4,530 bases of DNA. It comes from a virus. Lineage: Duplodnaviria; Heunggongvirae; Uroviricota; Caudoviricetes. The notes under the pieces were generated by a model. That model made no database searches, was not told the origin of the DNA, and saw nothing but the letters and a program-made list of their open reading frames with translations. Both the position numbers and the translations under genes were made by a program. Shown piece by piece: positions 1 through 4,530 of this stretch; position 1 is the first letter of the stretch, and every line of letters starts with the position of its first letter. The stretch is from the IMG/VR virus record IMGVR_UViG_2657245448_000001. One strand, given 5' to 3'.

Positions 1-406
1 AAACCGGTTGACGTTCAAGGAAATCGGCAGGTAGCGGGGATACTGACTGATAGCCGTCATAGATTTGTGGCGGCTGTTCAGTATGCAGCGGTAACATCGC
101 CAGGTCGCACTCTCGGTCACCCCAGTAGCAGGCCGGGTCGAAAATGTACTGATCCACGACTAACGCATCCGGCACGCTGTTACTGGCTTTTACCTGCAAC
201 CAGACCAGCACCAGATCGCCGCTACGTAACGAGTCCAGCGATTTGCAATCACCATCTTTTCCCAGAAATTTTATCTTCTGTGATGTGACAGTTTCACCGT
301 TAATAACAGTCATTCCGTCACCGGTCATCGTGTAGTTGCCGCACTGAATTGCAGCCATCGCCGGAGCAGTAACCATCATAACTAACGCCAAACATAACCG
401 TTTCAT
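1..406 (-). CDS. 5'-complete, 3'-truncated ORF (at least 135 codons): secreted small protein N-terminus running in frame into a fructosamine-kinase-family C-terminal segment; probable prophage/host junction ORF
   Basis: Hand translation of the minus strand from ATG (plus 404-406) to position 1 gives no stop: MKRLCLALVMMVTAPAMAAIQCGNYTMTGDGMTVINGETVTSQKIKFLGKDGDCKSLDSLRSGDLVLVWLQVKASNSVPDALVVDQYIFDPACYWGDRECDLAMLPLHTEQPPQIYDGYQSVSPLPADFLERQPV... Residues 1-18 are a classic Sec signal peptide (MKR, hydrophobic core, AMA before the likely cleavage site). Residues 87-104 (YIFDPACYWGDRECDLAM) match the conserved C-terminal motif of the fructosamine-3-kinase family. The ATG overlaps the upstream gene stop (TAATG) and is preceded by AGAGGG. 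It is absent from the ORF track only because it runs off the window edge. Confidence 0.6.
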   Translation of the reverse strand, partial: MKRLCLALVMMVTAPAMAAIQCGNYTMTGDGMTVINGETVTSQKIKFLGKDGDCKSLDSLRSGDLVLVWLQVKASNSVPDALVVDQYIFDPACYWGDRECDLAMLPLHTEQPPQIYDGYQSVSPLPADFLERQPV

Positions 407-1470
407 TAAAGCCCTCTTTCCCTCGCTGATGAGGAAACAAGATCCGCCGCGCCACGCGCTTCACACATCATATCCATGTACCACGCCTGGCCCCTTGTGT
501 CGCCAGTGTACATAATCCCGCGCACAATATAAACGCCATCCGTTGCGATGCTGGCAGGCTGCGATGTGGTGCCGCTGAGCGTGATATTTCCGTCCGTGTT
601 CTGGTCGGTGATCTGACCACCAGCCATCGCAATATCGTTGTTCGACAACGCGGTACGATAGACGGAAGCCTGATCCAGCTGAATGAGCCCGTTAACCCGG
701 ATGTTCGGATTAATAAGCGCGCGGACGTTTACGCCGTTACCGATAGTCTGCTGCGGCATTCCAATAAGCCCGGTAGCGCTGTTGAGCACAATCGCTTCGT
801 GAACATATTCGTTATTCACCACCATCTGGCGCTGACCGTCCACGAATTGCCATGTTGCGCCACATTGTCCGGCTACGTTATCCATTAGATGCCGCGTCAT
901 GCCAAAGAGTACCCGCCCCCGGGGGAATACAGTAGCAGGCATTTCAGGCGTCAGGCCTTCGGTCGCGCCTTTGGCTTCGAAGTCTTTCATCAGCGCACGG
1001 TTCACATCAGCGACCGTGTAACCGGCAGCCAGCGTCTGTGAGGTTATACTGGTAGCAAAAGCCAGATCAGTATCTGCTGCCTGAATCAGGACGTAGGTAT
1101 CAACCGGACTGTCTTTTCCTGTGACCGAGTAGCGAATTTCACCGCTGAAAATCAGTCCGTAGTTGCGGCCATCTCTCTGGCCCACGTCCGCCGCGTCAAC
1201 TTCCCGCACGGTCCCTACGTCGCTTGCTGACACCTCCGGCGCGATACCGTCGTAACCGGCAATCAGACGCACTTTCGAAAACTCCTGCCCGGTAATTCGG
1301 TTCACAGTATCTGCCGAGAGGTTATAAATTTTGATAGTCCCTACCCGGGACGCGCTGCTGATGTTGAACCAGTCGATCGTAAAGGTGACTTTGAAATCAC
1401 TTAGCTCAATTCCCTGACCGTTCCCGTCCACAAGCTGCAGCTCGAAATGTCTCATCCAGTTCTGTGACAT
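406..1470 (-). CDS. phage tail/baseplate protein, 354 aa (possibly gpD-like baseplate hub; family not confirmed)
   Basis: Complete ORF with ATG start (plus 1468-1470) and TAA stop (406-408). GGAG sits 5 nt upstream of the ATG, and the start lies 2 nt after the stop of the preceding gene. It is the third gene downstream of the tape measure gene in a coupled operon. The product call is positional inference; I do not recognise the sequence itself. Confidence 0.7.
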   Translation of the reverse strand: MSQNWMRHFELQLVDGNGQGIELSDFKVTFTIDWFNISSASRVGTIKIYNLSADTVNRITGQEFSKVRLIAGYDGIAPEVSASDVGTVREVDAADVGQRDGRNYGLIFSGEIRYSVTGKDSPVDTYVLIQAADTDLAFATSITSQTLAAGYTVADVNRALMKDFEAKGATEGLTPEMPATVFPRGRVLFGMTRHLMDNVAGQCGATWQFVDGQRQMVVNNEYVHEAIVLNSATGLIGMPQQTIGNGVNVRALINPNIRVNGLIQLDQASVYRTALSNNDIAMAGGQITDQNTDGNITLSGTTSQPASIATDGVYIVRGIMYTGDTRGQAWYMDMMCEARGAADLVSSSARERGL

Positions 1471-1472
1471 GC

Positions 1473-1775
1473 TTACTCCGTTGATACCAGTAAATGGCTG
1501 CGACCGCCCAGGTCAGTTTTTGTGGGGTAATCCTGTGTGTTGTCATCACAGACCACCACCAGCTTAAAACCAAGCCCCATACAGGCGTACTGCGCCAGCA
1601 GGTCAGCACCAGTGACGAGAGGAATACCGGAGATTACCGGCTCCCCTCTGTCGTTCTGCAGGTCCATAATCCAGTACAGATCGCGCCATATGATGCTAAT
1701 CCGCCAGGTGACACCACCCAGGACGATGCTGAACTGCTGGTTGTCCGCTGTCAGCGGAATTTCCTGAATTGTCAT
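1473..1775 (-). CDS. small phage tail protein, 100 aa (hypothetical)
   Basis: Complete ORF with ATG start overlapping the upstream stop (TAATG at 1773-1777) and a GGGGGG run about 8 nt upstream. TAA stop at 1473-1475. No recognisable LysM-type motif. Confidence 0.6.
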   Translation of the reverse strand: MTIQEIPLTADNQQFSIVLGGVTWRISIIWRDLYWIMDLQNDRGEPVISGIPLVTGADLLAQYACMGLGFKLVVVCDDNTQDYPTKTDLGGRSHLLVSTE

Positions 1776-2362
1776 TAGCCGCCCCCCAGTAATGACGCCA
1801 CGTTACCCGTGATGCTTTTCAGCAGTGAAGTATCTGGAGGCTTTGTGGTTTTGTTGCCGCTGTTCTGTACCGCCGACGTGCTGGCCCCTTCCTTCATGTT
1901 GGTTTTATCCGCGACGGTAATCTGCTGTGTCCGGGAGATAATGACCTCCCTCAGGGTGAGGACGGCGGACAGGACGTTTTCGGTTGTCTTGTCCGTCGTC
2001 ACTTCCAGCGCCCGGATCAACATGTTGCTGTACAGCCGTTTACCGGTTACCACATCGAAGGGGATACGGCTTTCCTGCAGACCCAGTAGCTCCTGATACG
2101 TCTGCTGAGGACTCAGGCCGAGCAGGCTGGTAGCCGTCAGGTTACTGGCAAAATCCAGCAATGCGCCGCCACCGGCGAAACCAACCTCCATCACCACTTC
2201 TGACGGTTTTTTATAGGCATGATCAGCGACAGCGGCCCCGACCTCTACCGGATGCTCTGTTATTTCAAGCATATCTGTATGCTTCTCTGAAATAACAACA
2301 CTGGGAACAATCATTCCTATTTTTCTGCTCTGCTGATGAAAAAGTGTAGAGAGAATATCCAC
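1775..2362 (-). CDS. phage tail protein, 195 aa, immediately downstream of the tape measure gene (possibly gpU-like tail-completion/baseplate component)
   Basis: ORF opens with GTG (plus 2360-2362) overlapping the tape measure TAG stop (TAGTG), with a purine-rich GAGGGTGGG stretch upstream. The first in-frame ATG (codon 17) has AGGA directly abutting it, so GTG is the more likely start. Stop TAA at 1775-1777. Confidence 0.6.
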   Translation of the reverse strand: MDILSTLFHQQSRKIGMIVPSVVISEKHTDMLEITEHPVEVGAAVADHAYKKPSEVVMEVGFAGGGALLDFASNLTATSLLGLSPQQTYQELLGLQESRIPFDVVTGKRLYSNMLIRALEVTTDKTTENVLSAVLTLREVIISRTQQITVADKTNMKEGASTSAVQNSGNKTTKPPDTSLLKSITGNVASLLGGG

Positions 2363-4503
2363 TAACCCACCCTCACCTGATTACTTCGCATGACCTGAGC
2401 ATTTGCAGACTGTTGCCGACGTGCAACCTCATTACCGACAGCGTGCGGATCTCCGCCACCGTAAATGTGGTAGGTATTTTGCTGGTTAACCTCTGTCACT
2501 TTGCCACTAATTCCCGCCACGGCAGCCTTATTAATCAGCTCTCGAGAATAGATATTTCTTCCATTCTCATGCTGGATAATGCTGCTCATCAATGCTGACA
2601 TGGTTTGCGGATCGCTCATATTCAGGGCAGCCCGGGGATCCACTCCCAGTCGTTGCGATACAGCCCTGATATACGCTGTTGTGTTGTTATTATCAGACGC
2701 AGGTGCCCAGGTAGAGATAATTTTCTCCACACTGTTTATTCCCCGTCCGGCGTACAGCATTAACTGACGAGCAAGAGCCCGTAATCCATCAAAGGCAGTT
2801 TCAAATCTGGCAAATCGCCCGCCCGGGCGTTCAAGAGAAGCCCCTGCCTGACCAGCAAAATTAAGGTTTCCCGGATTGTTATTCCGTTCTCCTCGTTTCG
2901 TAGCCTGTGCATATTGTTCCGGCTCAGCACCTGGAATATCTGACTGAATATTTGCGCCTTTTACGGTATGAGGATTACGACCAAAATCGGTATCAATGCC
3001 AAGCCAGCGCAATGAATCTCCAATATTTTGTTTCGTGTAATCCCAGGATGACTTCGCACTGGCACCAATATTTTCGCGATCAGAGTACAAATACGCAGCA
3101 TAAGCCATCCAGCCTTTTAACCACGGCGGGACCGGCAAACCTGATATTTTCCCGAAAGCCCCCAGAACCCTGGATACCCAGACACCCGCGATGAATGTAC
3201 CAAGGATTTCCAGTGCATTTTGCCAGCCGCCAACACCATCTTTTAGTTCCAGAAGGTGATCACGAAGCCAGGTGATCGCATCCTTCGCTTTATCTATTGC
3301 CGGTTGCCATTTTTCCCAGTCGATAAGACTGTTACCGCCTTCTTTCCATGTTTTGTAGTCTTCCCACAAGAGACCGAGAGCCACGATCAGACCGGTAATC
3401 AGCCCTATAGGTGACATCCAGAAAGTAGAGTTAAGTATCCGCATGGCGACAACCAGACCGCCGATAACCTCTATCAGGGTTTTCGTTTCGGCATCCAGTT
3501 TCCCCCACCACTCGATGATATCTCCGACACCATCGACTATCCGAAATGCTACCCGCCCGACTATCTCACCCAGCCAGAGGATCCCCTTTATGACCTTTGT
3601 GATGGTGACTTCAATTTTGGGAAAATTTTCAATTATCTTTTTGCGCAGGTTATCAATCTGCCCCGCCAGTCCGTCCGCAAGATTCGATCCGATTTTGTCC
3701 CGCGCCATCCTGGCCATTTCACCGAGCGATTTCAGCGAGGTCATAAACCGGTTTGACGATAAGGCAGCCTGATCGGCATTAAATCCGATCGCTTTCACCA
3801 TTTCTGAATACTGAGCGCTGAACTGCCCCACTCCGCGACGCATAGCCATCAGGGTATTTTCGTCAATGCCCAGCATCTGCGCATACTGGTTAGCCCGGTA
3901 ATACGGCATGCTGCTGAGTTTCTGTCCAACGCCCGTAAAGATAGCAGCCATGTCACGCATGTTACCGCTGGCATCACGGGTCTGTACGCCCAGGCGATTC
4001 AGAAAGCCTTCTGCTCCGGGATTGTTACGAATAAACCGGGAGAGGCTTTCCAGAGAAGATCGCGCAGCGTCCACACTGCCGCCAACCTGCGAAACCGCAT
4101 AGCCAATAGACTGAATTCCCTGGACCGTCGCGCCGGTGCGCTGTGACGCCCAGTAAAGATTATCCAGGCCGGAGGCGATCTTAGCCGTGAAGGCCACCAC
4201 GGACAGCGCAGCCCCTTCAACAGCCAGCCCCATTTTGATGACATTTGCAGTTGTACCGGCGAGGACAGAACCGAACTTTTTCGCTCCTGCATCATCCACA
4301 CGGAAGCCAAGCGAGACGAGGAAATCTTTAATAGTTTCAGCGTTAGCTCGCCACGTCGCGACCTGGAGTGAATGGCTGCTTGCCAGGACGGCTGATAAGC
4401 CCGAACAACGTGACCGTGGACGGCGGTGGTCCGACCCACAGCGTGTAGTTGCCCTGCAACGGCGGGTTACCGCGTTCGGCAACGCGGACGATATCGGGAT
4501 CAA
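2362..4503 (-). CDS. phage tail tape measure protein (up to 713 aa; true start uncertain)
   Basis: Long ORF with typical tape measure organisation. Residues 45-300 are Ala/Gln-rich and predicted helical. Two Trp/Gly-rich hydrophobic blocks follow (about residues 307-380 and 425-475, nt 3364-3585 and 3079-3231). The gene sits directly after a chaperone-like frameshift arrangement. The TTG start at 4503 is the ORF-track start, but the first 44 codons are Arg/Cys/Pro-rich and look like an out-of-frame read. No canonical start with a Shine-Dalgarno sequence sits where protein-like sequence begins (about 4370). Confidence 0.85.
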   Translation of the reverse strand: MIPISSALPNAVTRRCRATTRCGSDHRRPRSRCSGLSAVLASSHSLQVATWRANAETIKDFLVSLGFRVDDAGAKKFGSVLAGTTANVIKMGLAVEGAALSVVAFTAKIASGLDNLYWASQRTGATVQGIQSIGYAVSQVGGSVDAARSSLESLSRFIRNNPGAEGFLNRLGVQTRDASGNMRDMAAIFTGVGQKLSSMPYYRANQYAQMLGIDENTLMAMRRGVGQFSAQYSEMVKAIGFNADQAALSSNRFMTSLKSLGEMARMARDKIGSNLADGLAGQIDNLRKKIIENFPKIEVTITKVIKGILWLGEIVGRVAFRIVDGVGDIIEWWGKLDAETKTLIEVIGGLVVAMRILNSTFWMSPIGLITGLIVALGLLWEDYKTWKEGGNSLIDWEKWQPAIDKAKDAITWLRDHLLELKDGVGGWQNALEILGTFIAGVWVSRVLGAFGKISGLPVPPWLKGWMAYAAYLYSDRENIGASAKSSWDYTKQNIGDSLRWLGIDTDFGRNPHTVKGANIQSDIPGAEPEQYAQATKRGERNNNPGNLNFAGQAGASLERPGGRFARFETAFDGLRALARQLMLYAGRGINSVEKIISTWAPASDNNNTTAYIRAVSQRLGVDPRAALNMSDPQTMSALMSSIIQHENGRNIYSRELINKAAVAGISGKVTEVNQQNTYHIYGGGDPHAVGNEVARRQQSANAQVMRSNQVRVG

Positions 4504-4530
4504 GATTGATTTTTTGCCTGCCCGTCACTT
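4343..4530 (-). CDS. 3' end of the gene upstream of the tape measure gene, probably the -1 frameshift extension of a tail assembly chaperone (lambda G/GT or P2 E/E' type); 5' end outside the window
   Basis: This frame is open from the window edge to TAA at 4343-4345 (VTGRQKINLDPDIVRVAERGNPPLQGNYTLWVGPPPSTVTLFGLISRPGKQPFTPGRDVAS). The tape measure frame, which is +1 relative to it, ends a separate upstream ORF with AAG-TGA at 4530-4525. The GTG at 4528 is the first codon read after a -1 slip on a heptamer ending in AAG. There is no convincing ribosome-binding site for independent initiation. Confidence 0.45.
   Translation of the reverse strand, partial: VTGRQKINLDPDIVRVAERGNPPLQGNYTLWVGPPPSTVTLFGLISRPGKQPFTPGRDVAS
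4525..4530 (-). other. last sense codon (AAG) and TGA stop of a small upstream ORF in the tape measure frame; candidate 3' part of a -1 slippery heptamer
   Basis: The minus strand reads AAG TGA at 4530-4525. The -1 frame continues open for 61 codons. The heptamer 5' part lies outside the window. Confidence 0.35.

Follow-up and report, generated by a model that had tools for sequence, protein, structure and literature searches.

A signal-peptide–YfhM–YniA fusion frame, very probably a chimeric end of a draft Escherichia coli contig, flanks a genuine SEN34-like prophage segment

The 4530-nt stretch of DNA analysed here (hereafter the window) is one short contig, CDRV01000231.1, taken from end to end; the contig belongs to GCA_000937355.1, a draft E. 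coli assembly of the Illumina era. Its anatomy was resolved by separate searches and by ungapped alignments to the fetched parental loci, which divide the window into four pieces, each 100% identical to its own parent and all sharing one common coding orientation (Table 1). In the whole-window megablast only the prophage body was matched at 100%, and the two ends match elsewhere. The foreign tails are confined to the contig ends, the left one comprising 248 nt (96 nt of yfhM and 149 nt of yniA) and the right one 186 nt (yjbG), and both of them end within unique genes. The three genes concerned are single-copy chromosomal genes that lie far apart in every complete genome inspected; in strain 4/2-1, yniA is found at 1.81 Mb and yjbG at 4.34 Mb. 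A circular molecule was considered and rejected, as the contig ends carry no terminal overlap.

Table 1. Features of the window, listed from its left to its right end
Feature	Position (nt)	Strand	Basis and remarks
yniA 3′ fragment, ORF codons 87-135 = YniA residues 207-255 of 286, native frame	1-149	-	100% identity; runs off contig end
Junction 1: single T, unlike yniA (G) and yfhM (A); makes hybrid CAG (Gln) codon	150		Four-way alignment
Internal yfhM (alpha2-macroglobulin) piece, 96 nt, ORF codons 55-85, native frame	151-246	-	100% identity
Junction 2: AA; nt 248 unlike phage (G) and yfhM (C)	247-248		Alignment
Phage small secreted protein gene, 5′ 158 nt, ORF codons 1-53 of 111	249-406	-	phrog_3443
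Prophage body	249-4344		100% identity in 59 of 5426 complete E. coli genomes (whole-window megablast)
Stop/start overlap TAATG, baseplate hub gene/small ORF	404-408	-	Sequence and ORF list; native phage feature, same layout in natural prophage
Phage baseplate hub gene, 354 aa, intact	406-1470	-	phrog_196, E 2e-88; PF22759 E217_GP41, weak match
Baseplate plug gene, Pam3 gp18 family, 100 aa, intact	1473-1775	-	PF22479, E 6e-25
Dit-like baseplate protein gene, 195 aa, intact	1775-2362	-	PF21821, E 3e-33
Tape-measure gene lacking only its ATG, native codons 2-661	2362-4344	-	phrog_2276, E 3e-265 for native protein
Junction 3 and internal yjbG fragment, YjbG residues ∼109-169 of 245	4345-4530	-	100% identity; runs off contig end

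The phage body is a genuine 4.1-kb stretch from the tail/baseplate module of a temperate myophage of the SEN34-like (Brunovirus) type. Its identity is 100% to vB_EcoM-689R2, -606R2 and -611R5, which are induced E. coli myophages, and ∼82% to Salmonella phage SEN34 (Brunovirus). Due to the loss of the tape-measure ATG at the 4344/4345 join with yjbG, the gene was called by PGAP from an internal GTG at 4299, giving the 645-aa product WP_064753253.1. By exact-sequence look-up, this truncated product forms a cluster of n = 1, present on one 4530-nt contig. In the same gene, residues ∼407-650 (nt 2362-3100) match the PHROG endolysin/tail-injection transglycosylase families phrog_873 and phrog_7182, which suggests a tape-measure protein with a peptidoglycan-degrading domain.

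The complete native prophage was located in NZ_AP022003.1 (1337682-1378879, ∼41 kb), where it lies between yfhL and yfhH with a tyrosine integrase adjoining yfhL. In this genome the small gene that is cut in the window encodes the 111-aa protein WP_001551482.1 and is placed between the baseplate hub gene and a 170-aa ORF, past which follow a spike gene, a gp25-sized ORF, baseplate J, DUF2612 and fibre genes with an invertase remnant, i.e. ∼6 kb more tail genes past the small ORF. From this native layout, the phage piece of the window is internal to the tail module at both sides, and the real attachment site is unrelated to yniA. The original prediction, made from the letters of the window, regarded the small ORF as translationally coupled to the last tail gene. 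The coupling itself holds, being visible in the TAATG overlap, but the upstream gene encodes the baseplate hub and the tail genes continue beyond the small ORF (170-aa ORF, spike, baseplate J and fibres). The early region of the native prophage encodes a TIR-domain protein, an SNF2-related protein, a VRR-NUC protein and its own DNA polymerase, and these genes could be defence or counter-defence cargo.

For the native small protein, an 8-stranded beta-barrel is predicted, and a Cys22/Cys105 pair is conserved. An alignment of the phrog_3443 family (28 homologues) shows a signal peptide that is variable yet always hydrophobic, followed by a highly conserved mature domain with two invariant Cys, and members are found in prophages of Escherichia, Klebsiella, Raoultella, Cedecea and Yersinia. 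SEN34_20 of Salmonella phage SEN34 is a 70%-identical homologue; it is annotated as 77 aa from an internal Met, without a signal peptide, and 110 nt are left unannotated between SEN34_20 and the hub gene (region 2126-2469 of the fetched SEN34 locus). The start codon of SEN34_20 may be mis-annotated, or its N-terminus may have been lost.

In the window, the small gene opens a frame of 135 codons on the minus strand, which runs from the ATG at 406-404 to the window edge without a stop. Its N-terminus, MKR-LCLALVMMVTAPAMA/A, has the charge, the hydrophobic core (Kyte-Doolittle values up to 2.6) and the AxA pattern of a predicted Sec signal peptide, with an AMA/A end, and UniProt names its homologues ‘Secreted protein’; the translation ends with YIFDPACYWGDRECDLAMLPLHTEQPPQIYDGYQSVSPLPADFLERQPV. 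This chimeric minus-strand ORF (nt 1-406) is built of three of the four pieces of the window. The phage, yfhM and yniA parts are all read in their native frames, and the ORF is thus uninterrupted.

The phage part covers residues 1-53, which comprise the signal peptide and a third of the mature domain at its N-terminal end, and is identical to WP_001551482.1 (NZ_AP022003.1); at the nucleotide level, phage vB_EcoM-689R2 and the prophages of 59 complete genomes share nt 249-406 at 100% identity. Accordingly, the phrog_3443 match extends over residues 3-56 of the ORF (profile positions 6-61 of 115), compared with residues 3-109 in the native 111-aa protein. Strands 5-8 and the second invariant Cys (C105) are absent, and two thirds of the conserved barrel are missing. 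The first ∼85 residues had been predicted to be a signal peptide plus a small domain; the signal peptide was borne out, whereas phage-derived sequence makes up only residues 1-53 and residues 55-85 come from yfhM.

The middle piece is an exact copy of YfhM residues ∼1518-1548 of 1653. In 1811 genomes yfhM has the identical sequence (100%), and 5403 of the 5426 give a match; the piece includes the stretch SGDLVLVW...ALVVD. The original prediction had correctly remarked that the SGDLVLVW segment does not reproduce the HGDLWSGN motif of the kinase: the segment is a copy of yfhM, and belongs neither to the phage nor to yniA. In YniA the catalytic motif LLHGDLWSGN is located at residues 189-198, and in place of this motif the window has the yfhM-derived SGDLVLVWLQ, whose likeness to it is a coincidence within a foreign fragment.

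In most of the 5426 E. coli genomes, yniA agrees with nt 1-149 at 100% identity, and in none does the agreement go on past nt 149. The assignment of the residues from ∼87 onwards to the C-terminus of a fructosamine kinase is thus correct, and it is further supported by a match to Pfam PF03881 (Fructosamin_kin; ORF residues 85-134, profile positions 207-256 of 288, E 6e-19). Similarly, the breakpoint that had been expected within nt 130-230 was found where yniA identity ends, at 149/150; yniA identity does not extend across the 406 nt. The kinase part contains only 49 of the 286 YniA residues and lacks the ATP-binding N-lobe and the catalytic loop. The ORF is neither a member of the fructosamine-kinase family in a functional sense nor a complete phrog_3443 protein.

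When the 135-aa ORF was compared with 5.8 billion proteins, no protein spanning two of the pieces and no full-length homologue was found. The hits fall into three disjoint families, namely the YniA family (36% of the query), small phage proteins (39-42%) and alpha2-macroglobulin fragments (29-30%). Two longer alignments, with query coverages of 57% and 63%, were inspected and turned out to be rearranged or deleted YniA variants, not the same chimera. Hence, the original view was upheld that the N-terminus of a secreted phage protein and a C-terminus from yniA are joined in frame in an unnatural ORF, to which three parent genes contribute.

An uninterrupted 135-codon frame coupled to an upstream gene might also be expected of a natural multi-domain protein, in this case a secreted protein with a kinase-like C-terminal module. 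This reading is refuted by the lack of any homologue of such architecture among these proteins, the nucleotide identity of each segment to part of a different complete gene, and the incomplete state of both the kinase part and the phage part.

The exact shared sequence between the parents is 0-1 nt at junctions 1 and 3, and at junction 1 the similarity of the flanks is absent as well (6/20 and 5/20 identical). Beside junction 2, phage nt 249-268 and yfhM (6099-6118 of the fetched locus) are identical at 14/20 positions, with a longest exact run of 6 nt, and the corresponding peptides are ILGTDGK (yfhM) and FLGKDGD (phage), for which the chance is ∼1e-4 per comparison. Thus, template switching may have been the origin of this join. 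At junction 3, the yjbG fragment (matches in 5416 of the 5426 genomes) is out of frame with the tape-measure gene, and its own frame meets a TAA stop created by the join. Native frames are therefore kept at two junctions out of three; together with the common orientation of the four pieces, the rough chance of this arrangement is ∼0.03.

We then asked where else these junctions occur. Among 5426 complete E. coli genomes, no place covers at least 80% of nt 1-420, of nt 1-260 or of nt 4200-4530, and hence none of these genomes spans a junction; throughout, alignment to yniA, yfhM and yjbG ends at the breakpoints. Exact words of 28-30 nt across the junctions were also sought in genome_contigs (185,579 species-representative genomes), metagenome_contigs (241 million records) and viral_contigs (IMG/VR). 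The junction 1 word gave no exact match in genome_contigs or viral_contigs, the junction 2 word none in genome_contigs, metagenome_contigs or viral_contigs, and the junction 3 word none in metagenome_contigs or viral_contigs. As a positive control, we sought the phage 30-mer that crosses nt 249 unbroken: 6 viral contigs carry it, and each runs on as native phage. A 4261-nt IMG/VR contig was considered as a sibling short contig and rejected, since it shares no more than nt 249-482 with the window and runs on in the opposite direction. The junctions thus occur in one record only, at the contig ends.

Because the mosaic was found only at the end of one short draft contig, we regard it as an artefact and not as a prophage boundary or a new protein: very probably, the ORF and the window ends were joined during library preparation or assembly and do not represent a real feature. 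The chimeric ORF is accordingly not expected to be present in the organism. Most likely, chimeric templates or reads would have been formed by ligation or template switching during library preparation, and the assembler, or a contig-extension or gap-closing step, would have taken up such reads and lengthened the contig end. By chance, the three left pieces share strand and frame, and a gene caller or a human reader therefore sees one 135-codon ORF consisting of a signal peptide, a yfhM beta-strand piece and a YniA C-terminus. The 1-2 untemplated bases at junctions 1 and 2 and the small size of the pieces (only 96, 149 and 186 nt) fit with chimeric reads, as do their restriction to the contig ends and the termination of the contig within unique genes. 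Comparable chimeric yniA ORFs in other short scaffolds, such as the one in ERZ1758346 described below, point the same way. A k-mer (exact-repeat) mis-join was considered unlikely, as no exact repeat >6 nt is common to the parents at any junction; hence, the chimera probably existed already in the reads or came from tolerant extension or gap-closing. That two chimeric events should fall on one contig could plausibly be explained by extension at contig ends lying at repeat boundaries.

The common orientation and the two in-frame joins are slightly more order than random ligation predicts, and the similarity beside junction 2 is suggestive of guidance by homology, be it in template switching in vitro or in illegitimate recombination in vivo. 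We therefore considered that the junctions are real in the isolate and reflect a multi-breakpoint rearrangement, brought about by a series of template switches or by illegitimate recombination while the DNA was replicated or the prophage induced, in which short copies of yfhM, yniA and yjbG were joined to a duplicated prophage tail segment and gave rise to an in-frame secreted fusion ORF. The orientation and frames of the pieces speak for such an event, and so do the 14/20 similarity and the untemplated bases, which are also seen in microhomology-mediated template switching. However, no junction was seen in any other genome, metagenome or viral contig searched, and essentially every E. coli has yniA, yfhM and yjbG intact, each in a single copy. 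Moreover, unique flanks should assemble on into yniA and yjbG, but the contig stops 149 and 186 nt past the joins, and three independent breakpoints, including a 96-nt insert, would be required in 4.5 kb. We thus consider a rearrangement in the isolate unlikely. Its more specific form, a true in-vivo product in which an MMBIR/FoSTeS-like cascade copied 96-190-nt snippets of three distant genes to a prophage tail segment, with a signal-peptide fusion ORF arising in frame by chance, is held to be quite improbable.

The original prediction had proposed a prophage or tailocin island integrated in the 3′ region of yniA, with the host 3′ fragment fused to a terminal phage ORF. A phage-derived N-terminus and a yniA-derived C-terminus in one frame are indeed what such an event would leave, but this proposal is refuted by the mosaic anatomy and retains hardly any probability. 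A yfhM fragment separates the phage part from the yniA part. The phage sequence itself breaks off within a gene and within a module on either side: at codon 53 of the small ORF, ∼6 kb short of where the prophage ends, and immediately behind the tape-measure ATG. The yniA 5′ part and an integrase, which were expected at the far end, were sought; the far end proved to be yjbG, and no integrase was present. Neither was there a direct repeat that could serve as the att core, as the 14/20 similarity at junction 2 is between phage and yfhM, not between phage and yniA. Moreover, the natural prophage lies between yfhL and yfhH, yniA is unbroken at this position in all 5426 genomes, and the junctions are unique to the window.

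Comparison with known systems leads to the same preference for a chimeric contig end. Like other chimeric or misassembled short contigs, the window joins distant single-copy loci without repeats, has the joins at contig ends, is found in one record and yields singleton ‘hypothetical proteins’; it differs from typical ones in that two joins keep native frames, one of them lies beside a 14/20 similarity and the product looks designed. Integration of a prophage into the 3′ end of a host gene has in common with the window a phage–host junction within coding sequence, but in the window both integrase and att repeat are lacking, the phage breaks off within a module, a further host fragment intervenes, the opposite end is in an unrelated gene and the arrangement does not recur. 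With E. coli YniA, the ORF shares the identical segment that includes the DPA...WGDRE.DLA motif, although only a small part of the protein is represented here. With the phrog_3443 proteins of SEN34-like temperate myophages, which are encoded between baseplate hub and spike, it shares the gene position and the TAATG coupling, both native here, but the gene is cut at codon 53.

In terms of biology, the window holds no new protein architecture, attachment site or tailocin island, and its value is that of a quality-control case. Through one chimeric draft contig, public databases have acquired the singleton WP_064753253.1 and a partial ORF fused from three genes. A reading of the sequence alone can yield a plausible but wrong mobile-element story, and recurrence of a junction in an independent genome should precede the interpretation of fusions at contig ends.

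Another, unrelated chimeric yniA ORF was noticed in a metagenome assembly (ERZ1758346, scaffold QH_Gr_Scaff2081291, 361-972). On this 1106-nt scaffold, a YdjM-family (PF04307) N-terminus is joined in frame to a YniA C-terminus, with a yniA breakpoint only 3 codons from that of the window; either this is assembly noise in the background, or yniA has a position at which breaks recur.
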